In this document: positions 1-15,748 of the stretch, piece by piece
Numbering within the stretch: the first letter of the stretch is position 1
Layout: every line of letters starts with the position of its first letter
Source: a virus
Lineage: Duplodnaviria; Heunggongvirae; Uroviricota; Caudoviricetes
Strand: one strand, 5' to 3'
Length of the DNA stretch: 15,748 bases
Virus record (IMG/VR): IMGVR_UViG_2651869748_000011
Notes under the pieces: generated by a model
What the model was told of the DNA's origin: nothing
Databases searched by the model: none
What the model saw: only the letters and a program-made list of their open reading frames with translations
Made by a program: the position numbers and the translations under genes

Positions 1-246
1 TCAGTATTTCCCCGATACCTTGTGTGCAAATTGCATCAGATAGTTGATAGCCTTTTGTTTGTCGTTCTGGCTGAGTTCGTGCTTACCACAGAATACAGCC
101 ATTCCGAATCCGGCTTGTGATTGCGCCATCCCCATAGCAGCCATCACATCAGTACCGGAAAGAGAGTCAGAAGCCGTAGCCCGTGGTGAGTCGCTCATCA
201 TCGGGCTTTTTGGCGAATGAAATTTAGCTACGCTTTCGAGTCTCAT
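1..246 (-). CDS. Q: Late antiterminator Q, N-terminal fragment only (81 codons, then in-frame TGA at 1-3); likely inactivated
   Basis: The translation [44 protein letters not shown]...[10 protein letters not shown] matches my memory of the lambda Q N-terminus. Lambda Q is about 207 aa. The ATGA overlap with the upstream phosphatase stop matches lambda. The stop codon sits at the window edge. Confidence 0.8.
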
Positions 247-908
247 GCGCCTTCTCCCTGTACCTGAATCAATGTGAGGTTTCCGCAGAACACTGCGCCG
301 GTATCGATATACATCTGGTTGGCAAACTTGAGTGGTTTCACTGCTGGCGTATGACCAAAGATGAACGTGTCCGCACCTTTGATTTCTTTCACGATCCCGT
401 CTTGTGAGTTGCTGATTCGTTCGCGGTTCCAGATTACCTGCTGATGATCAACTGGTTTTCCAAACTCGTATTCGTCACAAGGATAATCGGCGTGGCAGAT
501 GACATATTTTTTATCTTTGCTCACCAGTTCGATGATTAACGGAAGTTCATCTGCTTTATGGGCAAGAGCTTTAGCCAGAATTTCTTTGTCGTAATCGAGA
601 TTAAAGAACCATCCACCGCCATTAAGCAGCCAGTGATTAACGTTTCCACGCTCTGATAAGCCATCAATCATCATTTGCTCATGGTTTCCACGTACAGCTC
701 TGAACCAGGGGAATGTGATTAATTCCAGGCATTCGACGTTCTCTGCACCACGATCAACCAAATCGCCCACCGAGATAAGCAGGTCTTTTTTGTTGTCGAA
801 TCCAATCGTATCCAGTTTGTTCATCAGGTTCGTGTAGCATCCGTGCAGATCGCCAACTACCCAAATATTTCGGTATTTGCTGCCATCAATTTTTTCGTAA
901 TAGCGCAT
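243..908 (-). CDS. ninI: Ser/Thr protein phosphatase (lambda PPase, NinI)
   Basis: From the internal Met, the sequence [25 protein letters not shown]...GDLVDRG...GNHE...GHTP carries the calcineurin-like metallophosphatase motifs (GDxHG, GDxVDRG, GNHE). It is near-identical to lambda phosphatase (221 aa). The ORF-track start at 983 is an upstream extension. Confidence 0.95.
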
Positions 909-1092
909 CTCTTTCACTCCATCCGCGATGAACCATAAGAACATCGTTGACGATGGCGTGCATTTTCCCGTCTTTATCATCAACGTATTTTCTGACCGTA
1001 CCGCGACTACATTTCAGTCTGCGTGCTACTTCTGTCTGGTTTCCGTATGCTTCAACGAGCATGTCTGGAATGGTTTTTACTGAGAACGTCAT
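886..1092 (-). CDS. ninH: NinH protein
   Basis: The 68-aa translation [37 protein letters not shown]... matches lambda NinH, which has an HTH-like segment. It sits between ninG and the phosphatase, as in lambda. Confidence 0.9.
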
Positions 1093-1700
1093 GCGGCCTC
1101 ACTTCTGCTATTTCGCAGGTCTTTGAGTTTCTGTTGGTACTCTGCCTTGATCGCCTTGCACTCTTCGACAGTCCAGCGATGGCGGCTATGGTTTGATTCG
1201 ATTTCGTCTACTGCTTCCTGCCCGATGCGGTTAATCAGTTCGACGCGATACGGAACGAGATTTCCGCTTTTGTGCTGGTTGCACACCACGCATTGCTTGT
1301 GAATATTGCGTTCATCAAATCGGAGTTGAGGTGCCGCAGCAGTTGTCCGGTAATGTCCGGCATCCCACTGAGCAGACGTGAGCGTTCCGCACGAGATACA
1401 TGGTAAGTCGCGGTCTCTTTCTCTGATGAAGGCGTTTACAGCTTGTTGGGCTTGTTTAATCCAGTAACTGCGGGGCTTTAAGGCGAGTTTTCGAATCTTC
1501 AGTTTATCTTTCTGTTTCTGCTCCTCTCGTCGTCGTTTCTTCTCTGCTGCTTTTTCCGCTTTTTCGCGTTCTTTGCTTCGTCGTTCCAGTGCTATCTTTG
1601 TTCCACACTCTGGAGAGCACCACCACTGATTAGCGAATGCAGGGTGAAACCATTCCCGACATTCTTCGTTTTTACATCGTCTTCGCGCTTGTTTAGCCAT
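1089..1700 (-). CDS. ninG: NinG / Rap recombination endonuclease
   Basis: The 203-aa translation [33 protein letters not shown]...[11 protein letters not shown]... is near-identical to lambda NinG (Rap). Its start overlaps the upstream stop (TAATG). Confidence 0.95.
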
Positions 1701-1969
1701 TATGGTTCGCTCCAGTAATTCTCAATTGCAGCAGCCATTCTCTGCATCCACTCTGCCAGCTTTAACGCGGCTTCTCTTTCAGAACCACATTTAGGGAAAT
1801 CCTTCATTTCCATGCTGGCCTTATATGTTCTGAATGCCAGGTCTCCGGTAATAACCAGCTCCTGATCAAGCACCGAGCGTTTATTCCGGTGTTGAACGTA
1901 ATAGACAGATTCAGTCCGCATTTCTTCTCTGTCTTTTTTGAAGGAAATAAGCTCAGAGAAATCACTCAT
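1700..1969 (-). CDS. Hypothetical nin-region protein (89 aa), not present in lambda
   Basis: This is an intact ORF. It is translationally coupled on both sides: its ATG overlaps the ninF stop, and its stop overlaps the ninG ATG. I recognise no family. Confidence 0.6.
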
Positions 1970-2138
1970 CGTCTTCTTCCTCGTACATTGAGCTATTCGG
2001 ATCGCTCATCAGTTCTGCGCAGCAGTGCTCACACACATGAACTTCCAGCACATGCAGCTTCTGACCGCAGTTAGCGCACGTTAAAGCCCGCTCGACGCTT
2101 TCTTTCTGGTATTGAAGAGATTGGGATGGGCTAAGCAT
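1962..2138 (-). CDS. ninF: NinF-like small zinc-ribbon protein (58 aa); below the ORF-track size cut-off
   Basis: Manual translation of the minus strand gives [58 protein letters not shown]. From ESVERALTCANCGQKLHVLEVHVCEHCCAELMSDPNSSM onward it matches lambda NinF, with CxxC...CxxC. Its start overlaps the upstream stop. Confidence 0.8.
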   Translation of the reverse strand: MLSPSQSLQYQKESVERALTCANCGQKLHVLEVHVCEHCCAELMSDPNSSMYEEEDDE

Positions 2139-2490
2139 TATTGGCGTCCTGCATCATGAGAAAGACAATCATGGCGGCGCGGAGGGAATTTTCATGTATA
2201 GCTAGCTTAGATTTACAGTCGGCCACACCACGTGCACCCCACTCGTCTTCATCGAGATTGATGATGCTAATCCTGTACTTCTCAATAATCGGCCATGAGG
2301 CGCTAGGATCATTGCAGTAGTCAGGCAAAGGGTTTAATGGCTCAAAAGTTGTATCAGCATTTCCGTAATACCATTTGTTGGTGTTATTCCCTGATGTTTC
2401 CGGTTTACATGCCCAAAGGCCTTTAAAAATTATGTCTCCTACCATTCTGTTAATTTCAAAATCACTTAACTGTGAATAATCCATTGTCAT
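2131..2490 (-). CDS. NinX-like phage protein (DUF2591-type), nin-region accessory gene
   Basis: The translation [18 protein letters not shown]...[29 protein letters not shown] resembles NinX/DUF2591 proteins of P22-like and lambdoid phages, from memory. The ATG at 2490 forms an ATGA overlap with the ninE stop. An alternative ATG lies at 2484. Confidence 0.6.
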
Positions 2491-2663
2491 TTCCTCGCAC
2501 GATGTCTTAGCCACCGGATATCCCACAGGTGAGCCGTGTAATTGAAGGTTTTTACGTCAGATTCTTTTGGGATTGGCTTGCGTTTATTTCTGGAGCGTTT
2601 CGTTGGAAGGTATTTGCAGTTTTCGCAGATGATGTCGGTGATACTTCGTCGCTGTCGTCTCAT
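2487..2663 (-). CDS. ninE: NinE protein
   Basis: The internal start gives [58 protein letters not shown] (58 aa), matching lambda NinE. It has an ATGA overlap with the methyltransferase stop. Confidence 0.85.
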
Positions 2664-3187
2664 GCCGCCCTCCTGACGCCCTGCCCGATCGCCATCAATG
2701 CCGCTTTGGATACGGTAGTAAACATCCGTCGAGGACTGATGAACGGTCGCCAAATCAGCAGCATGGAACCTTTGCTGTTTCCCTTCTTCTCCAGCCCTGT
2801 CGATGGTTCGATAAAATTAATCCGTCCATCAGTGATAATACGAACTTCGTCAACACTCTCCAGAGCCTTGCTGAACCATCCGACAGACATATCCTCTGGC
2901 ACAAGCATCACTACCGTCTGTCGCTGTTGTATGCACTGCTCAGCGGCTTTTTCCACCCACGGCCTGATATTGCTGTACGGTGGGTTATTCCAGATTGCAC
3001 CGTGGCTTACCCACTCAGAATTGAGCGCGTCGTCGGCCTCAGTTAACCAGTGAGCGCACAGAGCATTTTTGTCGCTCGCTGCCGAATCCAGCCAGAATCC
3101 AAACTCAATATCCAGTGCATCAAAAAGCCAAAGCGGCGTTTGCCAGCAGTCCTTGTCGTGTGCTGGCGTATTTGATTTGATAGTCAT
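2660..3187 (-). CDS. Phage DNA N6-adenine methyltransferase (Dam-like, phage N-6-MTase family)
   Basis: The translation [37 protein letters not shown]...NPPY contains the DPPY/NPPY catalytic motif and the CWQTP motif typical of the phage Dam family. It has an ATGA overlap with the ninB stop and occupies the lambda ninC/D position. Confidence 0.85.
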
Positions 3188-3624
3188 GCAGCCCGATCTC
3201 CCCATCTCGCTTTCCACTCCAGAGCCAGTCTCGCTTCGTCTGACCACTTAACGCCACGCTCTGTACCGAATGCCTGTATAAGCTCTAATAGCTCCGCAAA
3301 TTCGCCTACACGCATCCTGCTGGTTGACTGGCCTATTACCACAAAGCCATTCCCGGCAAGGTTAGGAACAACATCCTGCTGCTTTAATGCTGCGGTAAAC
3401 ACACACTTCCAGCTTTCTGCATCCAGCCAGCGACCATGCCATTCAACCTGACGAGAGACGTCACCTAAGCAGGCCCATAGCTTCCTATTTTGGTCTAAGC
3501 TGCGGTTGCGTTCCTGAATGGTTACTACGATTGGTTTGGTTGGGTCTGGAAGGATTTGCTGTACTGCGTGAATAGCGTTTTGCTGATGTGCTGGAGATCG
3601 AATTTCAAAGGTTAGTTTTTTCAT
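3184..3624 (-). CDS. ninB: NinB (Orf) recombination mediator
   Basis: From the internal Met, MKKLTFEIRSPAHQQNAIHAVQQILPDPTKPIVVTIQERNRSLDQNRKLWA... (146 aa) matches lambda NinB. Confidence 0.95.
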   Translation of the reverse strand: MKKLTFEIRSPAHQQNAIHAVQQILPDPTKPIVVTIQERNRSLDQNRKLWACLGDVSRQVEWHGRWLDAESWKCVFTAALKQQDVVPNLAGNGFVVIGQSTSRMRVGEFAELLELIQAFGTERGVKWSDEARLALEWKARWGDRAA

Positions 3625-3640
3625 GACTTCCCTCTCCCCC

Positions 3641-3672
3641 AAATAAAAAGGCCTGCGATTACCAGCAGGCCT
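3641..3672 (-). terminator. Intrinsic terminator tR2 between ren and ninB
   Basis: The minus strand reads AGGCCTGCtggtaatcGCAGGCCT followed by TTTTTATTT, an 8-bp GC-rich stem plus a U-tract. It has the same sequence and position as lambda tR2. Confidence 0.8.
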
Positions 3673-3697
3673 GTTATTAGCTCAGTAATGTAGATGG

Positions 3698-3988
3698 TCA
3701 TCTTTTAACTCCATATACCGCCAATACCCGTTTCATCGCGGCACTCTGGCGACACTCCTTAAAAATCAGGTTCGTGCTCATCTTTCCTTCCCGTTCTTCC
3801 CTGGTAGCAAACCGGTAATACACCGTTCGCCAGACCTTACCTTCGATAACCAGAAGACCTGCCCGTGCCATTTTAGCCGCGGCCTGATTTATGCTGGTTA
3901 CTGTTGCGCCTGTTAGCGCGGCAACGTCCGGCGCACAGAAGCTATTATGCGTCCCCAGGTAATGAATAATTGCCTCTTTGCCCGTCAT
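3698..3988 (-). CDS. ren: Ren protein (Rex exclusion escape)
   Basis: The 96-aa translation MTGKEAIIHYLGTHNSFCAPDVAALTGATVTSINQAAAKMARAGLLVIEGK... matches lambda Ren. It has an ATGA overlap with the P stop. Confidence 0.95.
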   Translation of the reverse strand: MTGKEAIIHYLGTHNSFCAPDVAALTGATVTSINQAAAKMARAGLLVIEGKVWRTVYYRFATREEREGKMSTNLIFKECRQSAAMKRVLAVYGVKR

Positions 3989-4686
3989 ACACTTGCTCCT
4001 TTCAGTCCGAACTTAGCTTTAATTTCTGCGATCTTCGCCAGAGCCTGTGCACGATTTAGAGGTCTACCGCCCATAACAGGAAGTTGTTTTACTGGTTCAG
4101 GTATCGTCTCACCACGGTTAATTCGCGCTGTCATACAGGTCAGTTCATCGGCAGCCTTGCGCCGTAATTCCGCATCAGTAAGCGCATTGGCCCGCATGTT
4201 CTGATACAGGTTGGTAACCAGCCAGTAGTGCGCGTTTGATTTCCACGGATAAGACTCCGCATCCGGATACAGGCCTCGCTTCCGGCAATACTCGTAAACC
4301 ATATCAACCAGCTCGCTGACGTTTGGCAGTCCGGCGATAACGGATGCTTCTTCCCGGCACCATGCAACAAACTGCCCGGGTGATGGCAGAAATGGTCGAT
4401 TCTGCCGACGGGCTACGCGCATTCCTGCGTTAACCTGTTCCATCGTGGTGATCCCGTTTTCCCGAAAAGCCAGAACCCACTGGCGACGGATTTCGTTCAC
4501 TTCGTTCTGGTCACGGTTAGCCAGGCTCGCCGGGAAAGTTGCCAGTAACTGGCTGAACACACCGTTGATGATCTGCGCTACCTGCTGTACCTGCGGCTTT
4601 TCGTCGTACTGTTCCGGCATGTTGTTGGCGATCCGACGCATCTGCTCACGGTCAAAGTTAACCATCTGTGCGGCGATGTTTTTCAT
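3985..4686 (-). CDS. P: Replication protein P (DnaB helicase loader)
   Basis: The 233-aa translation MKNIAAQMVNFDREQMRRIANNMPEQYDEKPQVQQVAQIINGVF... matches lambda P. Confidence 0.97.
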   Translation of the reverse strand: MKNIAAQMVNFDREQMRRIANNMPEQYDEKPQVQQVAQIINGVFSQLLATFPASLANRDQNEVNEIRRQWVLAFRENGITTMEQVNAGMRVARRQNRPFLPSPGQFVAWCREEASVIAGLPNVSELVDMVYEYCRKRGLYPDAESYPWKSNAHYWLVTNLYQNMRANALTDAELRRKAADELTCMTARINRGETIPEPVKQLPVMGGRPLNRAQALAKIAEIKAKFGLKGASV

Positions 4687-5582
4687 AGATCCACCCCGTA
4701 AATCCAGTCTGTGTTTGTCAGGTCGAGTTTTGGTTTGCTGGCTGTCACGACTGCCTGTTGCTTGTTACGGTTGATTTCGAGCTGGGTCCACTTGTCGCGG
4801 AGTTTGGCCGGACTAAGCACGTTACCGGACCAGAAGTTGTCCTGGCATGCCCAGCGGAACAGCACGCACATGTCGCGGTGGTTACGTCCGTCACGTTCAC
4901 GCATCAGGCGGATATCGTTAGCCCACCCTGCAAAATTCGGTTTTCTGGCTGATGGCGCGATGGTCTTCACCATGTCAAACATCCACTCTGCGGCGGTCAG
5001 GTCTTCTGCTGTCCCCCACTTGCTGCCGCTCTGAATTGCAGCATCCGGTTTCACCACAGAAAGATCGTTTTCTGGCTGGTCAGAGGATTCGCCAGAATTC
5101 TCTGACGAATAATCTTTTCTTTTTTCTTTTGTAATAGTGTCTTTTGTGTCCCTCTGTTTTGAGGGATAGCAATCCCCCAATTTGAGGGATGTTTTATCCC
5201 TCGTTTTAGGGGATTTTCCCTCGTTTTGAGGGATACACCATTCTGAGATGTTTTTATTTGGTCCAAACATGCCGCCTTGCTGCTTGATAATATTCATTCT
5301 GACGAGTTCTAACTTGGCTTCATTGCACCGTTTGACGGGTAACTTTGTAATCTCGCTAAGTTGAGAATCGGTGACTCTGTCCATTGGTTTATTCCACCCA
5401 TAGGTTTTACGCAGAATGGCAAGCAGCACTTTAAACTGTCGCTTGGTCAGATCTGCGCCCGAATAAGCCTCAAGCAGCATATTTGATAGTCTGGCGTAAC
5501 CATCATCGAGATCTGCCACATTACGCTCCTGTCCGGCAAAGTTACCTCTGCCGAAGTTGAGTATTTTTGCTGTATTTGTCAT
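4683..5582 (-). CDS. O: Replication initiator O
   Basis: The 299-aa translation MTNTAKILNFGRGNFAGQERNVADLDDGYARLSNMLLEAYSGADLTKRQFKVLLAILRKTYGWNKPMDR... matches lambda O. The gene contains the ori iterons. Confidence 0.97.
   Translation of the reverse strand: MTNTAKILNFGRGNFAGQERNVADLDDGYARLSNMLLEAYSGADLTKRQFKVLLAILRKTYGWNKPMDRVTDSQLSEITKLPVKRCNEAKLELVRMNIIKQQGGMFGPNKNISEWCIPQNEGKSPKTRDKTSLKLGDCYPSKQRDTKDTITKEKRKDYSSENSGESSDQPENDLSVVKPDAAIQSGSKWGTAEDLTAAEWMFDMVKTIAPSARKPNFAGWANDIRLMRERDGRNHRDMCVLFRWACQDNFWSGNVLSPAKLRDKWTQLEINRNKQQAVVTASKPKLDLTNTDWIYGVDL
5105..5234. repeat. Lambda-type replication origin inside O: four O-binding iterons (5149-5233) plus an adjacent AT-rich unwinding region (5105-5147)
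   Basis: Four internally palindromic repeats of about 18 bp are present: tccctctgttttgaggga, atcccccaatttgagggat, atccctcgttttaggggat and tccctcgttttgaggga. They are flanked by aataatcttttcttttttcttttgtaatagtgtctttt. Confidence 0.9.
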
Positions 5583-5592
5583 AATGACTCCT

Positions 5593-5669
5593 GTTGATAG
5601 ATCCAGTAATGACCTCAGAACTCCATCTGGATTTGTTCAGAACGCTCGGTTGCCGCCGGGCGTTTTTTA
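5593..5669 (+). ncRNA. oop: oop antisense RNA (overlaps the 3' end of cII)
   Basis: The sequence GTTGATAGATCCAGTAATGACCTCAGAACTCCATCTGGATTTGTTCAGAACGCTCGGTTGCCGCCGGGCGTTTTTTA matches the 77-nt lambda oop RNA with its terminator hairpin. The upstream Po elements are TTGCTG..CATAAT. Confidence 0.85.
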
Positions 5670-5908
5670 TTGGTGAGAATCGCAGCAACTTGTCGCGCCA
5701 ATCGAGCCATGTCGTCGTCAACGACCCCCCATTCAAGAACAGCAAGCAGCATTGAGAACTTTGGAATCCAGTCCCTCTTCCACCTGCTGATCTGCGACTT
5801 ATCAACGCCCACAGCTTCCGCTGTCTTCTCAGTTCCAAGCATTGCGATTTTGTTAAGCAACGCACTCTCGATTCGTAGAGCCTCGTTGCGTTTGTTTGCA
5901 CGAACCAT
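5615..5908 (-). CDS. cII: Transcriptional activator cII
   Basis: From the internal Met, MVRANKRNEALRIESALLNKIAMLGTEKTAEAVGVDKSQISRWKRDWIPKFSMLLAVLEWGVVDDDMARLARQVAAILTNKKRPAATERSEQIQMEF (97 aa) matches lambda cII. The ORF-track start at 5968 is an extension. Confidence 0.97.
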   Translation of the reverse strand: MVRANKRNEALRIESALLNKIAMLGTEKTAEAVGVDKSQISRWKRDWIPKFSMLLAVLEWGVVDDDMARLARQVAAILTNKKRPAATERSEQIQMEF

Positions 5909-5918
5909 ATGTAAGTAT
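5886..5918 (+). promoter_or_regulatory. PRE promoter with cII-binding TTGC-N6-TTGC repeat
   Basis: The sequence ttgcgtttgtttgc at 5886-5899 is followed by a -10-like aagtat. The arrangement and location over the cII start match lambda PRE. Confidence 0.7.
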
Positions 5919-5987
5919 TTCCTTAGATAACAATTGATTGAATGTATGCAAATAAATGCATACACCATAGGTGTGGTTTAATTTGAT

Positions 5988-6019
5988 GCCCTTTTTCAGG
6001 GCTGGGATGTGTAAGAGCG
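5988..6019 (-). promoter_or_regulatory. nutR (boxA CGCTCTTA plus boxB hairpin); the tR1 region follows downstream
   Basis: The minus strand reads CGCTCTTACACATCCCAGCCCTGAAAAAGGGC. boxB is GCCCTGAAAAAGGGC at 5988-6002 and boxA is at 6012-6019. The site lies between cro and cII as in lambda. Confidence 0.85.
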
Positions 6020-6027
6020 GGAATATC

Positions 6028-7383
<1,356 letters not shown>

Positions 7384-7433
7384 TCCCCACCTCAATCTCG
7401 ATAACCAAAAAACAAACTATTTTCCGTTTAAAA

Positions 7434-7507
7434 ACAATGGAGTTTGTTTTTCATGCCCCTTTTTTACAATATTTCTTGTTTACAACATACAATCTTTCTT
7501 GTAATTT
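7434..7507 (+). promoter_or_regulatory. 434 left operator (three ACAA-N6-TTGT sites at 7434-7447, 7466-7479 and 7489-7502) and the PL promoter
   Basis: The sites are acaatggagtttgt, acaatatttcttgt and acaatctttcttgt. A sigma70 promoter overlaps them: TTTACA (7479-7484), a 17-nt spacer, then TAATTT (7502-7507), reading towards N. Confidence 0.8.
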
Positions 7508-7547
7508 TAAGCCATCAGCAGGACGCACTGACCACCATTGAAGGTGA

Positions 7548-7578
7548 TGCTCTTAAAAATTAAGCCCTGAAGAAGGGC
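7548..7578 (+). promoter_or_regulatory. nutL (boxA-like TGCTCTTAA plus boxB GCCCTGAAGAAGGGC)
   Basis: The sequence tgctcttaaaaattaaGCCCTGAAGAAGGGC is as in lambda nutL, with one mismatch in boxA. It lies between PL and N. Confidence 0.85.
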
Positions 7579-7736
7579 AGCATTCAAAGCAGAAGGCTTT
7601 GGGGTGTGTGATACGAAACGAAGCATTGGCCGGAAGTGCGAATCCGGATTAGCTGCAAATGAGCCAATCGTGGGGTGTTTTCGTTCAGGACTACGACTCA
7701 CACACACCACCAAAGCTAACTGACAAGAGAATCCAG

Positions 7737-8060
7737 ATGGATGCACAAACACGCCGCCGCGAACGTCGCGCAGAGAAACAGGCTCAATGGAAAGTAGCAA
7801 ATCCCCTGTTGGTTGGGGTAAGCGCAAAACCAGTTAACCGCCCTATTCTCTCGCTGAATCGCAAACCGAAATCACGAGTAGAAAGCGCACTGAATCCGAT
7901 AGACCTTACAGTGCTGGCTGAATACCACGAACAGATTGAAAGCAACCTGCAACGTATTGAGCGCAAGAATCAGCGCACATGGTACAGCAAGCCTGGCGAA
8001 CGCGGCATAACATGCAGTGGACGCCAGAAAATTAAGGGAAAATCGATTCCTCTTACCTAG
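7737..8060 (+). CDS. N: Antitermination protein N
   Basis: From the internal Met, MDAQTRRRERRAEKQAQWKVANPLLVGVSAKPVNRPILSLNRKPKSRVESALNPIDLTVLAEYHEQIESNLQRIERKNQRTWYSKPGERGITCSGRQKIKGKSIPLT (107 aa) has the arginine-rich motif. It is about 97% identical to lambda N, from memory. Confidence 0.95.
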   Translation: MDAQTRRRERRAEKQAQWKVANPLLVGVSAKPVNRPILSLNRKPKSRVESALNPIDLTVLAEYHEQIESNLQRIERKNQRTWYSKPGERGITCSGRQKIKGKSIPLT

Positions 8061-8615
8061 TTACTTAGATATTGGCCTTGGCTTTATCTCAATATTATAT
8101 GGATCATAGCTGGCAACTAATTCAGTCCAGTAAATATCCTCAATAGGGAATAATATATGCTTCCCGTTCCATCGGGAAAAAGTTTTGTTCAACACACCAA
8201 GCTCAATCAACTCACTAATGTATGGGAATTGTTTTGATGTAACCACATACTTCCTGCCTTCATTAAGGGCTGCGCACAAAACCATAGATTGCTCTTCTGT
8301 AAGGTTTTGAATTACCGATCGCACTTTATCGTTTTGCATCTTAATGCGTTTTCTTAGCTTAAATCGCTTATATTTGGCGCTGGCAATAGCTGATAATCGA
8401 TGCACATTAATTGCTAGCGAAAATGCAAGAGCAAAGACGAAAACATGCCACACATGAGGAATACCGATTCTCTCATTAACATATTCAGGCCAGTTATCTG
8501 GGCTTAAAAGCAGAAGTCCAACCCAGATAACGATCATATACATGGTTCTCTCCAGAGGTTCATTACTGAACACTCGTCCGAGAATAACGAGTGGATCCAT
8601 TTCTATACTCATCAA
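8061..8615 (-). CDS. sieB: Superinfection exclusion protein B (SieB), membrane protein
   Basis: The 184-aa ORF runs antisense to the PL operon between N and ral, as lambda sieB does. It has two hydrophobic helices (MYMIVIWVGLLLLS, VWHVFVFALAFSLAINV). The sequence matches my memory of lambda SieB. The true start may be the second Met (8612). Confidence 0.75.
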   Translation of the reverse strand: MMSIEMDPLVILGRVFSNEPLERTMYMIVIWVGLLLLSPDNWPEYVNERIGIPHVWHVFVFALAFSLAINVHRLSAIASAKYKRFKLRKRIKMQNDKVRSVIQNLTEEQSMVLCAALNEGRKYVVTSKQFPYISELIELGVLNKTFSRWNGKHILFPIEDIYWTELVASYDPYNIEIKPRPISK

Positions 8616-8739
8616 ACTGTAGGGGTTGTAATAGTTTATCCGATTTCTCGCTGTAGGGGTACACGAGAACCACCGAGCCTGATGTGGTTAAAAGACAGGC
8701 ACAATCTTTACTACCGCAATCCACTATTTAAGGTGATAT

Positions 8740-8826
8740 ATGGAAGAAGAATTTGAAGAGTTCGAAGAGCATCCGCAGGATGTAATGGAACAGTACCAGG
8801 ACTATCCGTATGACTACGACTATTGA
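8740..8826 (+). CDS. Small acidic protein (28 aa), lambda orf28-like
   Basis: Manual translation gives MEEEFEEFEEHPQDVMEQYQDYPYDYDY*, preceded by AAGGTGA. It overlaps the ral start. It is too short for the ORF track. Confidence 0.5.
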   Translation: MEEEFEEFEEHPQDVMEQYQDYPYDYDY

Positions 8827-8989
8827 TAAGAATCAATGGTGTGGACAATTCAAGCGATGCAATGGATGCAAGCTGCAATCGGAATGCATGGTTAAGCCTG
8901 AAGAAATGTTTCCTGTAATAGAAGATGGGAAATATGTCGATAAATGGGCAATACGAACGACGGCAATGATTGCCAGAGAACTTGGTTAA
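8810..8989 (+). CDS. ral: Ral (restriction alleviation), shortened by a premature TAA (59 aa versus 66 aa)
   Basis: Manual translation gives MTTTIDKNQWCGQFKRCNGCKLQSECMVKPEEMFPVIEDGKYVDKWAIRTTAMIARELG*. After the TAA the same frame continues QNNKAA*, which is the lambda Ral C-terminus. Confidence 0.8.
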   Translation: MTTTIDKNQWCGQFKRCNGCKLQSECMVKPEEMFPVIEDGKYVDKWAIRTTAMIARELG

Positions 8990-9109
8990 CAGAACAACAA
9001 AGCTGCCTGATAGTGGCCTTTATTTTTGGCATAAATAACAGAATAAACACTGCACTGAACCGCCCCGGGAATCCTGGAGACTAAACTCCCTGAGAAAGAG
9101 GTAAACAGG

Positions 9110-9436
9110 ATGACTAAAAATACTCGTTTTTCCCCTGAAGTCCGTCAACGGGCAGCCCGTATGGTTCTGGAAAGTCAGGGCGAATATGACTCACAATGGG
9201 CGACAATTTGTTCCATTGCTCCAAAGATTGGCTGTACGCCGGAGACTCTGCGTGTCTGGGTTCGCCAGCATGAGCGGGATACCGGGGGCGGTGATGGAGG
9301 GCTCACCACCGCTGAACGTCAGCGTCTGAAAGAGCTGGAGCGTGAAAATCGTGAACTGCGCCGCAGTAACGATATCCTTCGCCAGGCTTCCGCTTATTTT
9401 GCGAAGGCGGAGTTCGACCGCCTCTGGAAAAAATAA
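9110..9436 (+). CDS. IS629-like transposase OrfA (HTH, leucine-zipper region)
   Basis: The 108-aa translation is [57 protein letters not shown]...[34 protein letters not shown]. It ends in TGG AAA AAA TAA; the A6 run is the candidate -1 frameshift site. Confidence 0.95.
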
Positions 9437-10323
9437 TGCCGCTGCTGGATAAGCTGCGTGAGCAGTACGGGGTCGGACCGCTATGCAGCGAACTGCATAT
9501 TGCCCCGTCAACGTATTACCACTGTCAGCAACAGCGACATCATCCGGATAAACGCAGTGCCCGTGCGCAGCGCGATGACTGGCTGAAGAAAGAGATACAG
9601 CGCGTATACGATGAAAATCACAAGGTATACGGTGTGCGTAAAGTCTGGCGTCAGTTGTTACGGGAAGGAATCAGAGTGGCCAGATGCACTGTGGCACGTC
9701 TCATGGCGGTTATGGGACTTGCCGGTGTTCTCCGGGGTAAAAAGGTCCGCACTACCGTCAGCCGGAAAGCCGTTGCCGCATGCGACCGCGTAAACCGTCA
9801 GTTCGTGGCAGAACGTCCAGACCAGTTGTGGGTGGCTGATTTTACCTGGGTAAGCACATGGCAGGGCTTCGTTTATGTGGCGTTCATCATTGATGTGTTC
9901 GCCGGATACATCGTGGGATGGCAGGTCTCATCATCCATGGAAACAACATTCGTGCTGGATGCACTGGAGCAGGCGTTGTGGGCCCGTCGGCCGTCCGGCA
10001 CAATCCATCACAGTGATAAAGGTTCTCAGTATGTATCGCTGGCCTACACGCAGCGGCTTAAGGAAGCCGGATTACTGGCATCAACAGGGAGTACTGGCGA
10101 CTCGTATGACAACGCGATGGCGGAGAGCATCAATGGTCTTTACAAAGCGGAGGTAATACACCGTAAGAGCTGGAAAAACCGTGCAGAAGTGGAACTGGCC
10201 ACACTCACGTGGGTGGACTGGTATAACAATCGACGATTGCTGGAAAGGCTGGGCCATACTCCCCCGGCAGAAGCAGAAAAAGCTTATTATGCTTCCATCG
10301 GAAACGATGATCTGGCAGCCTGA
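9436..10323 (+). CDS. IS629-like transposase OrfB (DDE / rve catalytic domain)
   Basis: The 295-aa ORF is in the -1 frame relative to orfA (TAATG overlap). DDE-type motifs are present: WVADFTWV, HHSDKGSQY and DNAMAESINGLYK. Confidence 0.95.
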   Translation: MPLLDKLREQYGVGPLCSELHIAPSTYYHCQQQRHHPDKRSARAQRDDWLKKEIQRVYDENHKVYGVRKVWRQLLREGIRVARCTVARLMAVMGLAGVLRGKKVRTTVSRKAVAACDRVNRQFVAERPDQLWVADFTWVSTWQGFVYVAFIIDVFAGYIVGWQVSSSMETTFVLDALEQALWARRPSGTIHHSDKGSQYVSLAYTQRLKEAGLLASTGSTGDSYDNAMAESINGLYKAEVIHRKSWKNRAEVELATLTWVDWYNNRRLLERLGHTPPAEAEKAYYASIGNDDLAA

Positions 10324-10365
10324 GTTCACAGATAAAACACTCTCCAGGAAACCCGGGGCGGTTCA

Positions 10366-10554
10366 CTGCGTGTGTGGGTTCGTCAGCATGAGCGGGATAC
10401 CGGGAGTGGTGATGGTGGACTCACCACCGCTGAACGTCAGCGTCTGAAAGAGCTGGAACGTGAAAATCGTGAACTGCGCCGCAGTAACGATATCCTTCGC
10501 CAGGCTTCCGCTTATTTTGCGAAGGCGGAGTTCGACCGCCTCTGGAAAAAATAA
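10366..10554 (+). pseudogene. Truncated orfA remnant of the second IS629-like copy
   Basis: The in-frame remnant [62 protein letters not shown] corresponds to residues 47-108 of OrfA. The native start, RBS and HTH are absent. Confidence 0.8.
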
Positions 10555-11441
10555 TGCCGCTGCTGGATAAGCTGCGTGAGCAGTACGGGGTCGGACCGGT
10601 ATGCAGTGAACTGCATATTGCCCCGTCAACGTATTACCACTGTCAGCAACAGCGACATCATCCTGATAAACGCAGTGCCCGTGCTCAGCGCGATGACTGG
10701 CTGAAGAGAGAGATACAGCGCGTATACGATGAAAATCACAAGGTATACGGTGTGCGTAAAGTCTGGCGCCAGTTGTTACGCGAAGGTATCAGGGTGGCCA
10801 GATGTACAGTGGCGCGCCTCATGGCGGTTATGGGACTTGCCGGTGTTCTCCGGGGTAAAAAGGTCCGTACTACCGTCAGCCGGAAAGCCGTTTCCGCAGG
10901 CGACCGCGTAAACCGTCAGTTCGTGGCAGAACGTCCTGACCAGCTGTGGGTGGCTGATTTTACTTACGTCAGCACATGGCAGGGCTTCGTCTATGTGGCG
11001 TTCATCATTGATGTGTTTGCCGGATGTATCGTGGGGTGGCGAGTCTCATCGTCTATGGAAACGACATTCGTGCTGGATGCACTGGAGCAGGCGTTGTGGG
11101 CCCGTCGGCCGTCCGGCACAGTCCATCACAGTGATAAAGGTTCTCAGTATGTATCACTGGCCTATACGGAGCGACTAAAAGAAGCAAAACTGCTGGCATC
11201 AACAGGGAGTACAGGTGACTCGTATGACAACGCGATGGCGGAGAGCATCAATGGTCTTTACAAAGCGGAGGTAATACACCGTAAGAGCTGGAAAAACCGT
11301 GCAGAAGTGGAACTGGCCACACTCACGTGGGTGGACTGGTATAACAATCGACGATTGCTGGGAAGGCTGGGTCATATCCCTCCGGCAGAAGCAGAAAAAG
11401 CTTATTATGCTTCCATCAGAAACGATGATCTGGCAGCCTGA
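10554..11441 (+). CDS. IS629-like transposase OrfB (second copy, intact ORF)
   Basis: The 295-aa ORF is about 96% identical to 9436-10323 and keeps the DDE motifs. It probably cannot be made as an OrfAB fusion because orfA is truncated. Confidence 0.85.
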   Translation: MPLLDKLREQYGVGPVCSELHIAPSTYYHCQQQRHHPDKRSARAQRDDWLKREIQRVYDENHKVYGVRKVWRQLLREGIRVARCTVARLMAVMGLAGVLRGKKVRTTVSRKAVSAGDRVNRQFVAERPDQLWVADFTYVSTWQGFVYVAFIIDVFAGCIVGWRVSSSMETTFVLDALEQALWARRPSGTVHHSDKGSQYVSLAYTERLKEAKLLASTGSTGDSYDNAMAESINGLYKAEVIHRKSWKNRAEVELATLTWVDWYNNRRLLGRLGHIPPAEAEKAYYASIRNDDLAA

Positions 11442-11713
11442 GTTCACAGATAAAACACTCTCCAGGAAAACCGGGGCGGTTCAAATAACATTGTGCGTAC
11501 TCCTCTTGAGAAGGTGAGAACTATCGGTATCGCAGACACAGTTATGCCTACGGGTCTCCCCGCATCGGTCATTCTCAAAAGGTTTAAAATAGGGTTAGGT
11601 TTGATCACTCTGAACGATCAATCGAAGACATTACGATTGGAACAAACGATCAATAGGTATGTGGTTATTTGCTAAGCTGCGACAACCTTTACAAAGACAC
11701 TCAGGAATGTTTC

Positions 11714-12022
11714 ATGCCCAAATTAGCTATTAGCTTATTACTTTACTTGGCCTGCTTTTATGCAGTTGGATATGGCGCTGGATATATAACAGGTGGAATA
11801 ACTTGGCACACACTGTATATGCTTGAACGTATAATTACCGTAGCCCTACTTGCATTCATTCCAGTGTTTATCTTTGCGGCTTTATTAAATGCATCCAAAA
11901 GACAAGGAATAATAAAATCACTTTCTGTCTCAGCGATTAATTTAATCCCTTCGGCTATCGCATTACTTATAGGATTTACTGACGCAGTGACCAGAAAGTT
12001 TCTTACTTATTTTCTCGGTTAA
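11714..12022 (+). CDS. Small integral membrane protein (102 aa, about 3-4 TM helices), unknown function
   Basis: The translation is MPKLAISLLLYLACFYAVGYGAGYITGGITWHTLYMLERIITVALLAFIPVFIFAALLNASKRQGIIKSLSVSAINLIPSAIALLIGF... The RBS AGGAA lies 7 nt upstream. The gene is AT-rich relative to its neighbours. It is convergent with the minus-strand operon and overlaps it by 20 nt. Confidence 0.6.
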   Translation: MPKLAISLLLYLACFYAVGYGAGYITGGITWHTLYMLERIITVALLAFIPVFIFAALLNASKRQGIIKSLSVSAINLIPSAIALLIGFTDAVTRKFLTYFLG

Positions 12023-12194
12023 CTGACATATTGCGAATGACCAACTGTTCTATTAGCTCATTACGAGAATAAAATGGTCGGTCATTCGTAGCCGCTTTAT
12101 CCACGCCAAGCATCGACAATAGAATAGAAGTGGGAAGCCCCCGGTAACGCAGGGTCAAACGGCCTTCGGGAGTGCGTGGGTCAATCATAGCCAT
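12003..12194 (-). CDS. Hypothetical small protein (63 aa) downstream of the KilA-N gene
   Basis: The translation is MAMIDPRTPEGRLTLRYRGLPTSILLSMLGVDKAATNDRPFYSRNELIEQLVIRNMSVNRENK. GGAG lies 9 nt upstream of the ATG at 12194. The ORF-track start at 12209 is a GTG inside the KilA-N gene. The helix-extended-helix-like segment is only a guess. Confidence 0.45.
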   Translation of the reverse strand: MAMIDPRTPEGRLTLRYRGLPTSILLSMLGVDKAATNDRPFYSRNELIEQLVIRNMSVNRENK

Positions 12195-12196
12195 TG

Positions 12197-12682
12197 TTAA
12201 AGTCTCCACTCACAGCGACCGACACGTAGCTCCTCAAACTCCTCTTTCGAGACGAGTTGTCCAGCCCTGTAGTGCGATACCGTGTGCTTCTTAATGAATG
12301 CCTTAGAGTCCGGCGTGATGTCGTCCGAAGATGCTACAGCGGCCTGTACGCTGGCACTGGAGGTCATAGACACAAAGGCATCCGCTACAGCTATTCCGTA
12401 CTCAAAGTCCAGCCACTCGCCAAACTTGACGGCGGACGTGGGGTCAGCAAGCCATGACGTACCGAGGCGACCCATATCAACTTTCTTTATGCGGCGGTTT
12501 TTCTGCCCCATAAGATAGCGCCCGACTTTGGTCTGAGCGAAACGCTTAACCATTGTCTTCTCGGTGTCTTCTACCTTACCAATCTGAATACCGACCCGGC
12601 GAATTTCATCCAATCGGAACAATCCGTCTTGACTGGTGAGGTCCTGACCGAAGATATGGATAGTGTATTCTTGTTGAGACAT
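12197..12682 (-). CDS. KilA-N domain-containing protein (161 aa)
   Basis: The RBS is AAGGAG, 9 nt upstream. The segment ...RLGTSWLADPTSAVKFGEWLDFEYGIAV... matches the conserved GTW(v/l)hp..a..fa.WlsPef core of the KilA-N (PF04383-like) DNA-binding domain, from memory. Confidence 0.65.
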   Translation of the reverse strand: MSQQEYTIHIFGQDLTSQDGLFRLDEIRRVGIQIGKVEDTEKTMVKRFAQTKVGRYLMGQKNRRIKKVDMGRLGTSWLADPTSAVKFGEWLDFEYGIAVADAFVSMTSSASVQAAVASSDDITPDSKAFIKKHTVSHYRAGQLVSKEEFEELRVGRCEWRL

Positions 12683-12905
12683 ATCGTTGTACTCCTTTTA
12701 TCTGCATCCTGAAGCCGCATCCTGCCGCCTACTCAAAGCCCCCAACGATAGGGAGACGGCAGGCAACAAGACGCAGATAGAATGACTTTGAGATTTGATG
12801 ATTAGTGTCGGCGGTGGCACTTATTTAAAACGAAAGGACAACAGCATATTTCCGCATGACTTGACGCATCAAGGCCAGAGGCAGAAATAAGTATTTGCTC
12901 GGTGT

Positions 12906-12928
12906 CGTTCCTAAGGTGATAGTTTAGT
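12906..12928 (-). promoter_or_regulatory. Second, degenerate T7-family phage-RNAP promoter-like sequence (predicted +1 G at 12911)
   Basis: The minus strand reads ACTAAACTATCACCTTAGGAACG. Positions -17..-5 are identical to the element at 13470-13458. The sequence differs from it at -4, -3, +3, +5 and +6. It lies between the 60-aa ORF stop and the KilA-N leader. Confidence 0.4.
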
Positions 12929-13110
12929 CAAACAGTAATGAACTTCGGAGAACTTGACTCGAAAGTGTTCAGGACTTCCAGTGAGACCCGAAGTATGGAG
13001 ATCATATTATAGCGACCATAGTTTACTTCGGACTGACAGGACTGGAGGCTGGACTTAAAGTTCTTCTTATTGGAATTGTGATAACACAATCCATAACAAG
13101 ATAAACTCAT
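12928..13110 (-). CDS. Hypothetical small protein (60 aa)
   Basis: The ATG at 13110 is preceded by TGAGGAGACC. The translation is MSLSCYGLCYHNSNKKNFKSSLQSCQSEVNYGRYNMISILRVSLEVLNTFESSSPKFITV. The stop TGA overlaps the -17 end of the second promoter-like element. I recognise no family, so coding status is uncertain. Confidence 0.35.
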   Translation of the reverse strand: MSLSCYGLCYHNSNKKNFKSSLQSCQSEVNYGRYNMISILRVSLEVLNTFESSSPKFITV

Positions 13111-13447
13111 GGTCTCCTCAAGCCTGCTGGTCAAGACTCAAAGCTCCAACCTCAGACACCACCACTGGTCTAACCTCTTTGAGTTTCCGCCTGTCCACAA
13201 ATGGATGGCAGACCTCAGCAATGATGTCTTGGTTCTTCAGTTATCCGCGCAGCGATTATCACAGAGCCAACTTAAAGTCGGATGTGGTCTTCTGCTCCCC
13301 GCCTGTCAAAAGGGAAGATAACCTACGTTAAAAGAGAATGGTCTCAGGCCAAGGTGATTTAACACTAGGCGTCTGCGGATGGTTTCCAATCGGTCCGCTA
13401 CCGGAAGCCTGAGACTATATGAATGTGTGGGTCGGTGACTTAGGGCC

Positions 13448-13470
13448 TCTCCCTATAGTGATAGTTTAGT
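13448..13470 (-). promoter_or_regulatory. T7-family single-subunit RNAP promoter-like sequence, K1F-type specificity block (predicted +1 G at 13453)
   Basis: The minus strand reads ACTAAACTATCACTATAGGGAGA. Positions -8..+6 (TCACTATAGGGAGA) are identical to the T7 consensus TAATACGACTCACTATAGGGAGA. Positions -12..-8 (ACTAT) match the K1F-type promoter, as I recall it. The element is intergenic, 18 nt after the DUF4145 stop. Confidence 0.65.
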
Positions 13471-13488
13471 CCCCCTTCCCCGTCAGCC

Positions 13489-14148
13489 CTACTCGTTAGC
13501 GGCCTGTTGCTGTTCCCTCGCTTTCCGGTCCCGGTCTTCAATGCCCTTAAGCGCCCGTTCCGGCATACTGTTAAACATGGCTTCGACTTCTTTCGGTCGA
13601 GTAATCTGCTCAGTGACAATAATGTTCAGCAGCTTAAAGAGACCATGCGCCAACTGAGGGTCGTCATCAATGTTAATTTCACCCGGATGTACCGCCTGAT
13701 TGCCAACAATACGACAGATGTCAGCAGCTCGCTGGACCAGTGGAGACAGCCCTTTAGCTACAAGGGACTTAATGTCCGTGTCGATATGCTTCCCCGGCTC
13801 ACCGAGATGGACCATCAGCTTTTGAAGACTTAAGCGCAGGAGTGCGGCAGCGCCCTTAGGTGACAGATTAATGATGCTTCTGGCTTCCATGTAGTCGGAC
13901 TTACAGTCTTCTGGCATGTCAGGATTAGGCAGCTCAACACTACCAGCCGCAGGAATCATCATATTGCCTTTATACCAATAAGCATTTTCATAGCAATGTT
14001 GACAATATGATAAGTGGAAATCAGTTTCCATATAAGTAGAATGAGGCGCAACTCCCACCATTGACCGCCAGCTTTGCTTGGAATAAACACCACAGTGCGG
14101 GCAATTAAAAGCTTTACCATCAAACACCGCCGGATAATACTCAGCCAT
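13489..14148 (-). CDS. Zinc-ribbon plus DUF4145 domain protein (219 aa), candidate phage-defence/abortive-infection cargo
   Basis: The N-terminus has CPHCG...CQHC (a zinc ribbon). The C-terminal segment [18 protein letters not shown]...[31 protein letters not shown] fits the DUF4145 signature (L..I..L...g.l....lR..GN.aaH), from memory. The start ATG overlaps the integrase stop (ATGGCTGA). Confidence 0.7.
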
Positions 14149-15748
14149 TTACTCCAGTCTCCTTATAAACATCAGCCATCACATTAACCAATCTATCTAC
14201 CTCGACTTCTTTCGCATACCTGTCATAGGTAATCGACCCTGAGCTATGACCCATAATCGCCTGAGCATACGCTAACCCGACCCCATGTTGTTTTAACTGG
14301 GTCGCCACTGTATGTCTGAATGAGTGGAACGCTAAGCCGCTACGGTCAGCGAGGACTTTAGGTAGCAACGTTCTGTTAAACCATTTGCTCACCTGCTCAC
14401 CGTAGCCGTTCTTCATCAGCTTGAGGCCATCGAATACCATAGCATTATCACCCTTAGCCTTTCTACGGTCTTCCACGAGTGACATAAAGTCAGCCAATAA
14501 AAAACCATAAGCACCATCTACCAACGGGACACAGCGGTCACTATGGGCGTTCTTGATGCTCTTACCCGGTAGGCTGCTATCGTCTTCGTTGATATGGATA
14601 TACACGGTCCCGGCCTCAGTGGTCCTGACGTCTTTGACCTGAAGCTGAGCCACCTCATTAAGTCTTGCTCCAGTGATTGCCGCCAGAGCAGTGACGTAAT
14701 AGTGGTAGGGCTTACCTGAGGTCTTCTGAGAGTACGCTTTAGCGGCGACCAGTAGTTGCCCTACCTGCTCAGGACTGAACGCATCACGAGCGTCGGAGGC
14801 TTTACGCTGCGGGACTTTCAGCTCAAGACCTTCGGTCAGGTTCTTAGCTATCAAGTCGTTGCGTACCGCCCACTTAAACACAGCAGCCATCTTGATAAGA
14901 TATTTATTGTTGATGGTAACGACATCCAAACAGTCAGTCTTAGACTCCCGGTTCAGCAGGTCAGACAGCGGCATAGACTTAAAGCGTTGCTTGCGGTTCT
15001 TCGGTATCTGCTGGAGGACTTCACGGACCCTGAGCATATCTGAACGGGTCGCCTTGCTGACATCCTGAATATCCAGATAGTCGAATATCTCGATTAACGT
15101 AGAGTGAGACGCTCGGTTCTCGCTTAGGGTCGCTGGCTTCCAGTTCTGAGCGTTCTCCTGCTCGTACTGCTCAATGAGAGACGCGAGGGTCAGTGCTTTA
15201 GGCTCGGGGACTTCAGGCTCTGCCAATACAGATAGGGAGACGGACGGTCTTAGACTGCCAGTCTCAGGCTCAAGGTAAGACAACAGGCCAGAGGTATCGC
15301 CTTTGAGTCTATCCTGACACGCTTTAAGCACACCGATAACGTCATTGATATAGCGATGCTGGTCTACAGTCAGATGCTCAGTCGCTACAGCTTCCCGAAG
15401 GTTGGACTTGATGTCATCGTACTGGTCAACGTAGAGCTGGTAGGACTCAGGGTCGTTCAGGTCATCGCGGCTGACACTAAGTTCCCACTCGACAATGGTC
15501 TTCAGGTGTTCCCGTAGCTCCTCATAAGAGGCGTTAGGGTTGTCTGCGTGGATTGCTTTAAGTGCTGACTTGATGTGCCGTGAGTGAGCCATAGCGGTAC
15601 GTCTATCCTTGGTCCGTAAAGATACTGACGCTAGTTTATAACGGTTGTGAGAAGGAAGCGAAGCGGTCAGGCGACTAGTGGTCTTCATCCTAAGACGGAT
15701 GTAAAAGACACCGTTACGCTGATAAAGGTAGGTTCTTGAATTGAGCAT
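14141..15748 (-). CDS. Tyrosine recombinase / integrase with a long N-terminal extension (535 aa); the ATG is at the window edge
   Basis: The C-terminal catalytic motifs are present: [13 protein letters not shown] (Arg I), [13 protein letters not shown] (H-x-x-R) and [15 protein letters not shown] (His, Tyr nucleophile). The start codon occupies the last three bases of the window, so the true N-terminus could lie further upstream. Confidence 0.9.

Follow-up and report, generated by a model that had tools for sequence, protein, structure and literature searches.

Two Diverged IS629 Copies Joined Tip to Interior between a Lambdoid Prophage Region and a glyU Island on an Escherichia coli Draft Contig

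The window analyzed here (the whole stretch of 15,748 nucleotides [nt], corresponding to nt 76–15823 of the 427-kb Escherichia coli draft whole-genome shotgun contig JHSG01000002.1, assembly GCA_001265875.1) carries two diverged copies of the insertion sequence (IS) IS629, arranged head to tail between the early region of a lambdoid prophage and part of an island beside the tRNA-Gly gene glyU. The right tip of the complete first copy abuts nt 193 of the second, 5'-truncated copy, and this junction is real: it recurs in two further independent drafts and is hence neither a chance occurrence nor a one-off assembly error. Because the exact IS tip was used and shares no homology with the target, the join is identified from its sequence as a product of strand transfer by an IS3-family transposase, the right end of copy 1 having attacked orfA sequence in the other copy. 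We tentatively favor, at slightly less than even confidence, a history in which a transposase made the join between copy 1 and copy 2, with copy 2 coming from the glyU island, and in which flanks were then exchanged among several IS629 copies; the fusion of prophage and tRNA island displayed by the contig is not securely established. The feature itself is an ordinary IS scar, a known kind of mobile-element structure. No publication mentioning the source accession was found in the literature.

A Complete and a Truncated IS629 Isoform

The pair comprises the following features (IRL and IRR, left and right inverted repeats; ORF, open reading frame):

9056–10365, + strand: copy 1, a complete IS629/IS1203-type IS3-family element (isoform A), 1310 bp
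9056–9080: IRL of copy 1
9110–9436: orfA of copy 1, intact
9436–10323: orfB of copy 1, intact
10341–10365: IRR of copy 1
10365/10366: junction, the terminal A of the copy 1 IRR joined to nt 193 of copy 2 (GGTTCA/CTGCGTG, the slash marking the joint here and below)
10366–11483, + strand: copy 2, nt 193–1310 of a second isoform (B), 1118 bp
10372–10554: remnant ORF of copy 2
10554–11441: orfB of copy 2, intact
11459–11483: IRR of copy 2

Copy 1 begins TGAACCGCCCCGGG (TGAACCGCC...) and ends CCCGGGGCGGTTCA (...GGCGGTTCA), with TG...CA ends and terminal inverted repeats of 25–29 nt that are 88–90% complementary. Its length and ends are those of the IS3 family (1.2–1.55 kb, TG...CA); copy 2 has the right repeat only and is missing its IRL as well as codons 1–46 of orfA, the helix-turn-helix (HTH) region. 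The two overlapping frames of the family are present (orfA with an HTH domain, orfB with an rve domain in the -1 frame, and a frameshift signal): genes on the source contig match PF01527 (orfA HTH) and PF00665 (orfB rve), and both copies contain the IS3-type frameshift pseudoknot (Rfam RF01497, ALIL; 119 and 121 bits at 9391–9507 and 10509–10625). All of this agrees with IS629/IS1203/IS3411 elements (1310 bp, TG...CA ends, ~25-nt inverted repeats, orfA [HTH_Tnp_1] and orfB [rve] in the 0 and -1 frames, a slippery run and an ALIL pseudoknot), whose homologues RefSeq calls “IS3-like element IS1203 family transposase” and which we take to belong to the IS51 subgroup of the IS3 family. The window departs from these elements in two respects: copy 2 has no IRL and no nt 1–192, and neither copy has a target-site duplication (TSD) of 3–4 bp. 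The pair is flanked by CAC and AAT (...CTGCAC/ and /AATAAC), and copy 1 alone by CAC and CTG; there is no direct repeat.

Copy 2 aligns without gaps to nt 193–1310 of copy 1, with 60 mismatches in 1118 positions (94.6% identity). The genes for OrfB show 33 synonymous and 13 nonsynonymous codon differences, the latter accounting for the 13 (of 295) residues at which the proteins differ. A preliminary description of this DNA, made from the sequence alone, had called copy 1 complete at 1310 bp (9056–10365) and run copy 2 without spacer from its own nt 193 to an intact IRR at 11483, taking the pair for two isoforms rather than a recent duplication and denying that CAC and AAT form a TSD; the boundaries prove exact to the base and the other points hold. 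It had also named matching 3–4 bp duplications as evidence that would overturn its account, and none occur in the window or in the flank pairs of the sister assemblies described below.

In the protein collection, 68 blocks representing many contexts contain the exact OrfB of copy 1. That of copy 2 occurs in only two contigs of the public collection. Differences diagnostic of A and B extend from nt 201 to nt 1297, so no crossover lies inside copy 1. Three A-type bases stand within the B-type copy 2 (10739, 10740, and 10745) and are absent from the sister assemblies and from the related IS of strain Res13-Lact-PEA14-20 discussed below; they reflect either gene conversion of a short patch or an error in the consensus. 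Copy 1 probably remains mobile, and copy 2 is predicted to be unable to move by itself because it has neither a left end nor the DNA-binding N-terminus of OrfA. In principle, the IRL of copy 1 and the IRR of copy 2 could move the 2.4-kb unit together; no flank pair carries the duplication expected of such a move.

The Junction Recurs in Sister Assemblies

Sister draft assemblies were reached through exact-sequence look-up of the island integrase and the phage SieB. The junction, without spacer (...GGCGGTTCA/CTGCGTGTG), is present in JHSA01000001.1 (L173) and JHSY01000129.1 (L182), making three occurrences in all; the assemblies of the three sister strains are GCA_001265875.1, GCA_001265755.1, and GCA_001266215.1. 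L173 shares with the window the joint itself (IRR/CTGCGTGTGTGGG), copy 2, and the island, and to the left of its copy 1 lies an IS911 beside an integrase fragment and RND efflux genes; this copy 1 is B-type at 16/16 diagnostic positions up to nt 246 and nearly all A-type from nt 285, with B bases at only four later diagnostic positions. L182 has the junction too, preceded by an identical copy 1 and by a phage flank that differs from that of the window at 2 of 8995 nt; to the right of its copy 2 are a truncated P22-like gene 4, gp10, gp7, and an injection protein. Both outer links of the window hence recur once each, the link of phage to copy 1 in L182 and that of copy 2 to island in L173, and no flank combination among these contigs (left, CAC or TAC; right, AAT or GGG) shows a target duplication. 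A further contig, JZXL01000002.1 (L178), ends in a 1310-nt “IS629” with alternating A and B bases, which looks like the collapsed consensus of two copies that is typical of a collapsed repeat.

Homologous recombination and replication slippage are ruled out as makers of the join by the precise tip and the lack of shared homology. The second isoform, 5.4% diverged, would already have been resident in the glyU island when the right tip of copy 1 joined its nt 193. The join may then have arisen as a normal insertion that later lost its left half, or as an end-initiated event, either direct or via an IRR–IRL dimer junction. Nested insertion is only one possible origin of the pair, because the 5' half of copy 2 was seen nowhere among the sequences examined: the pattern GAGACTCTG/TGAACCG is missing from every locus fetched, phage DNA rather than IS629 nt 1–195 lies to the left of copy 1, and the window shows neither both target halves nor a TSD. 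We also considered a nested insertion followed by recombination between the 5' repeats, which is unlikely given the 5.4% divergence and the non-IS left flank; furthermore, the B-type tract of L173 reaches nt 246, past nt 195.

Tandem dimers, (IS)2, with a reactive IRR–IRL junction are formed by IS3-family and similar elements such as IS911, IS2, and IS30. They share the head-to-tail layout of the pair and would be a plausible precursor, the junction attacking nearby DNA. The window differs from them in that its second copy starts at nt 193, so that no IRR and IRL abut at a distance of 2–3 bp, and no promoter is predicted at the joint.

Recurrent IS629-to-IS629 Junctions in Other Replicons

A 140-nt probe across the junction gave contiguous matches in unrelated replicons, the loci of which were then fetched. 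In each of the following, a complete IS629 is joined to nt X–1310 of another copy:

X = 193: pO145-12581
X = 193: PEC148 prophage
X = 195: EC07 plasmid (p1)
X = 179: pO157 variant (pSRCC 1675)
X = 179: KE51 chromosome
X = 155: NCTC11151
X = 72: 042 pAA
X = 392: pEco118UIb
X = 180: elppa5 (inferred from alignment spans only)

The tandems of pO145-12581, PEC148, EC07 p1, pSRCC 1675, KE51, NCTC11151, and 042 pAA share with the window their architecture, their orientation, and the lack of a TSD, and differ from it in isoform pairs and flanks. Paired copies are 93–100% identical within a locus and isoforms are locus-specific; because the isoforms differ between loci, we argue that the tandems arose independently. 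Several unrelated plasmids and chromosomes thus show that another IS629 copy has struck nt 179–195 of IS629 with its right end, both copies having the same orientation. Two position-unbiased surveys, able to detect any X from 1 to ~575, yielded 10 verified or span-inferred events among the matches listed (the best 60 of each), and 5 of the 10 fall within nt 178–208 (binomial P ~9e-5).

The tandem of the pO157 variant formed in situ, standard pO157 having a single IS629 at the same place. Resident nt 179–1310 and the right flank are unchanged in the variant, only “TG” and resident nt 1–178 are lost (the left flank thereby losing only 2 nt, in which it differs from the window), and GTAC on both sides of the new copy forms a 4-nt microhomology beside the IS end. 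In E. coli 042 pAA, inverted IS1414 fragments and duplicated repA genes enclose the IS629 and IS629(72–1310) pair in a palindromic arrangement.

Nested IS629-in-IS629 insertions with both target halves and 3-bp TSDs (ATT and GCG) are found in EC-107 at nt 100 and in 2013C-3250 at nt 267. As in the window, a right end abuts an internal position of the orfA region of another copy in the same orientation; in contrast to the window, which lacks the 5' half and has copies with 5.4% divergence, both halves are kept and the copies are 100% identical. Mirror structures, in which nt 1–1142 or nt 1–1187 precede a complete IS, were also verified. A symmetric dimer-junction model was considered and rejected, as the other, survey-estimated mirror positions are scattered and unverified and form no clear cluster. 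IS629-in-IS629 structures appear to be uncommon overall: among ~120 IS629 right ends sampled in viral contigs, a single nested case was seen, in inverted orientation at nt 731, and no junction at nt 193.

Several candidates did not survive inspection. Scanning IS629 with its own inverted repeats gave no significant internal match that could serve as a pseudo-end near nt 193 (the best was 17/30 at nt 211–240), and the sole feature nearby is a second GGAGACT at nt 186. Many two-piece survey matches turned out, on fetching the loci, to be a single IS with an internal deletion and were excluded (Sakai Sp4, EcPF5, Shigella pINV, an 86-bp deletion in O55:H7, and others). The 60-aa remnant ORF was of little use as a marker of truncated copies, most of its matches being a complete IS with a broken orfA.

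IS629 might prefer itself as a target, its right end being recurrently joined in the same orientation to nt ~179–195 in orfA of another or the same IS629; we regard this as a speculative and rather doubtful generalization. By such a route, the incoming end would synapse with the left end of the resident copy and capture a target about one loop-length away. If true, the outcome would be a stable “one-and-a-bit” tandem with a permanently disarmed second copy, and hence a built-in route of IS-against-IS inactivation and a predictable seed for rearrangements. A self-target preference is not described in the IS629 literature that we searched, and Rump et al. (2011) report no insertion hot spot of IS629. 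It has been proposed that IS629-associated deletions originate when a single IS629 end undergoes “sloppy” strand transfer to DNA that is not an IS end (bioRxiv 10.1101/2023.06.07.543989). These deletions and the IEE-enhanced excision of IS629 (Kusumoto et al. 2011, summarized in bioRxiv 10.1101/2023.06.07.543989) resemble the present case in that an IS629 end becomes linked to DNA other than an end, with adjacent DNA lost and no TSD left, and differ from it in that the target in the window lies inside another IS629. Tandems of a complete IS629 and an IS629 lacking ~180–195 nt recur in enterohemorrhagic, enteroaggregative, and other E. coli plasmids and chromosomes, which hints that IS3-family ends react nonrandomly with further copies of their own element. 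Were such a reaction confirmed, it would aid the reading of IS scars and of IS-driven structural variation in pathogenic E. coli.

A Close Relative of Copy 2 in the glyU Island

Over 4265 nt, the island part of the window matches E. coli Res13-Lact-PEA14-20 and FCI1 (NZ_CP062871 and NZ_CM172811) at 100% identity; in these genomes, the integrase lies 135 nt from the tRNA-Gly gene glyU, followed by actS and xdhABC. Res13-Lact-PEA14-20 has a complete IS629 in the same island and orientation, 584 bp farther from the integrase, as a simple insertion with a CAA duplication and a left flank collinear with FCI1 (window 11459–11491 compared with locus L001, 7104–9008). This element differs from copy 2 of the window only at three clustered positions (nt 566, 567, and 572). 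Because the isoform is rare, copy 2 would most simply be the same insertion. Its present right junction (IRR/AATAAC) may have been produced by an end-adjacent deletion of 584 bp or by a short local hop; the empty site reads ...TTTTGGTCA/AATAAC, and the last three IS bases (TCA) are the same as the target. The right end of copy 2 breaks a 163-aa gene of the island after its base 8, and the comparison suggests that an end-adjacent 584-bp deletion took out this gene.

Origin of the Prophage–Island Juxtaposition

Relative to intact relatives, the window lacks DUF2528-cIII-kil-gam-bet-exo...xis-int on the phage side and ~2 kb of distal island on the other. The preliminary description had placed the left flank in the PL operon just after ral and the right flank in an integrase island, and had foreseen the losses; the Ral (PF11058), N, and SieB genes, the position beside glyU, and the intact relatives bear it out in all of this, and its interpretation as a whole is partly supported, the history it proposed being the exception. 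That history, taken here as an insertion of copy 1 at nt 193 of copy 2 (duplicating CTG) and a subsequent single contiguous deletion from the left end of copy 1 through copy 2 nt 1–195, the distal island, the intervening DNA, and the phage genes from DUF2528/cIII to attP, now appears unlikely. Its components have precedents, as nested insertions with both halves and 3-bp TSDs exist (EC-107 and 2013C-3250), the order ral-IS-island would suit a prophage immediately left of the island with int facing it, and adjacent deletions are known for IS3-family elements (see also bioRxiv 10.1101/2023.06.07.543989). However, all prophages that we found to match SieB and the early region identically and to have a complete PL operon sit at att-lambda, their lambda-type int beside ybhC (pectinesterase), rather than near glyU.

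We take att-lambda and glyU to lie at ~0.8 and ~3.0 Mb of the K-12 map, ~2.2 Mb apart, with the N-to-int direction presumably running toward lower coordinates at att-lambda and the island part of the window toward higher ones. If the source prophage was at att-lambda, the window is an inversion, a translocation, or a chimeric joint and not a deletion joint. Of 10 distinct settings in which the island integrase occurs, none has a prophage to the left of the island; the 5' remnant of copy 2 did not turn up; and the junction position is a recurrent one. A single contiguous deletion is thus implausible, because the relatives at att-lambda are ~2.2 Mb away and oppositely oriented and because the sister assemblies have other left and right flanks; flank exchange among IS629 copies, or a path choice by the assembler, fits better.

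The same geometry counts against a one-step, end-initiated event, which we judge quite improbable. By this account, copy 1 was resident after ral, and its right end went to copy 2 nt 193 either directly or via the IRL of copy 2 as an (IS)2 dimer attacking ~190 bp away, which presumes that both copies lay on one molecule in direct orientation and that the interval between them was deleted. The exact IRR tip at the junction, the recurrence of junctions 72–195 nt from an IRL, the existence of the two verified mirror structures, the in situ formation of the pO157 variant tandem with its right flank kept, and the published “sloppy attack” model all speak for such a reaction. Against it, a prophage at att-lambda poses the same problem as for a contiguous deletion, and mirror-type junctions (verified and unverified) are scattered rather than clustered. 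Movement of the whole 2428-bp unit (copy 1 IRL to copy 2 IRR) as a composite transposon, or its formation by partial tandem duplication, is effectively refuted and we give it hardly any weight: the outer ends are a functional IRL and IRR and the flanks differ among sister assemblies, as would suit a composite transposon, but no TSD surrounds the unit in the window or in any flank combination of the sister contigs, and slippage or unequal crossing-over is excluded by the 5.4% divergence of the copies and by a join at the exact IS tip without homology.

We hypothesize instead that flank exchange among IS629 copies of the lineage, located after ral, in the island, in the P22-like gene 4, and in an IS911, produced both the missing TSD and the juxtaposition of the prophage PL region with the island. 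Such exchange would be homologous recombination giving an inversion or a translocation rather than one contiguous IS-adjacent deletion. Because the differences between copies 1 and 2 reach nt 1297, any exchange by which the phage flank was acquired must have involved two A-type copies, and it would have left no trace.

Several observations weigh against this hypothesis. The contig starts inside the phage, and the integration site of the source prophage hence lies off it; inverting the segment between att-lambda and glyU would leave the replichores unbalanced; the differing flanks of the three sister assemblies could be assembler artefacts, the L178 mosaic being like a collapsed repeat; and the hot-spot statistics come from few events, with independence judged by isoforms only and the best 60 matches considered per survey. 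The reciprocal junctions (island-distal to IRL, IRR to CAC-phage, and copy 2 nt 1–195 to IRL) were not found in accessible sequences. Among 5,426 complete E. coli genomes, neither the whole arrangement nor its phage/IRL or IRR/island junction was found. The junctions at issue would read as follows:

TTTTGGTCAAAT/TGAACCGCC
GGCGGTTCA/CACTGTGTATTC
GAGACTCTG/TGAACCGCC
GGCGGTTCA/GGGCTGTATTCC
GGGCATAC/TGAACCGCC

A chimeric contig is a possible though not a probable explanation. Here the tandem would be real, the assembler having joined the phage flank, the island flank, or both through identical IS629 repeats of 1.1–1.3 kb, with prophage and island apart in the cell. Many features of the data are of the kind that such an error would leave: the source is a draft contig beginning inside the prophage, the same tandem has three flank combinations in three sister assemblies, copy 1 of L173 changes from B-type to A-type between nt 246 and 285, L178 terminates in a mosaic, collapsed IS, copy 2 of the window has an isolated 3-base A-type patch, and the chromosomal sites expected from the K-12 map are 2.2 Mb apart. 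On the other hand, the sequence from phage through copy 1 to the junction recurs identically in two assemblies, as does that from the junction through copy 2 to the island; both majority links are on the source contig; and, so far as indexed, the source assembly contains a single occurrence of the exact copy 2 OrfB. The discordant sister assemblies substantiate the preliminary description's own caveat about misassembly across the repeats. The apparent fusion of prophage and tRNA island and the accompanying loss of genes for recombination and integration depend on how repeats of 1.1–1.3 kb were traversed, and the sister assemblies resolve these differently; the contig is hence no basis for claims of prophage decay or large rearrangement without long reads, and the L178 mosaic is a warning on short-read assemblies of this lineage.

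Architecture of the Flanking DNA

Outside the IS629 pair, the window contains the following:

1–9055: lambdoid prophage early region, from Pfam matches on the source contig
minus strand, in order: ninI, ninH, ninG, ninF, ninX, dam, ninB, ren-like, P, O, cII, cro
after cro: cI, a 134-aa ORF, and N (+ strand); sieB (- strand); ral (+ strand)
8810–8989, + strand: ral (PF11058 Ral), the final phage gene ahead of the IS
9053–9055: left flank CAC; empty site in an intact relative (locus L140) ...AACACTGCAC/TGTGTATTC
11484–15748: integrase-proximal ~4.3 kb of the glyU (tRNA-Gly) island, from identity to island-bearing genomes
11484–11491, - strand: first 8 nt only of the 163-aa gene
between the 163-aa gene remnant and the DUF4145 gene: small ORFs of the island
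13489–14148, - strand: DUF4145 gene of the island
14141–15748, - strand: island integrase

The prophage part is 97–98.5% identical to prophages of complete genomes as far as position 9057; the contig itself begins within the prophage, 75 nt to the left of the window. The order cI-(rex-like)-N-sieB-ral of a lambdoid PL operon is found in the window, and the cIII-kil-gam-bet-exo-xis-int half only in relatives. In intact relatives (e.g., NS-NP030), ral is always followed by a DUF2528 gene and then by cIII, kil, gam, bet, exo ... xis, int. Copy 1 starts 66 nt past the ral stop codon, and a terminator-like hairpin with a T run (hairpin 9002–9017; 9002–9027 when the run is included) lies directly 3' of ral, ~30 nt before the IS insertion point. 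At 5194–5233, within the O-like replication gene, two adjoining 20-nt repeats (TTATCCCTCGTTTTAGGGGA and TTTTCCCTCGTTTTGAGGGA) resemble the iterons of a lambda-type origin.

The island has the form of a tRNA-associated island, with an integrase beside a tRNA gene and bounding repeats, and the window holds its proximal part only, the distal 1.96 kb being missing. In FCI1, the island measures 6.36 kb and is bounded by a 17-bp repeat, TGGAGCGGGCGAAGGGA, of the tRNA 3' end (locus L002, 7024–7040 and 13400–13416); it codes for the integrase, the DUF4145 protein, and several uncharacterized proteins, one of which (327 aa) has homologues in Shigella, Citrobacter, and Rouxiella. The 20-mer CCTAAGGTGATAGTTTAGTC occurs three times in the island part of the window (12910–12929, 13452–13471, and 13854–13873; 75–100% identical), in and around the noncoding stretch between a 161-aa ORF and the DUF4145 gene, with one copy inside the DUF4145 gene.

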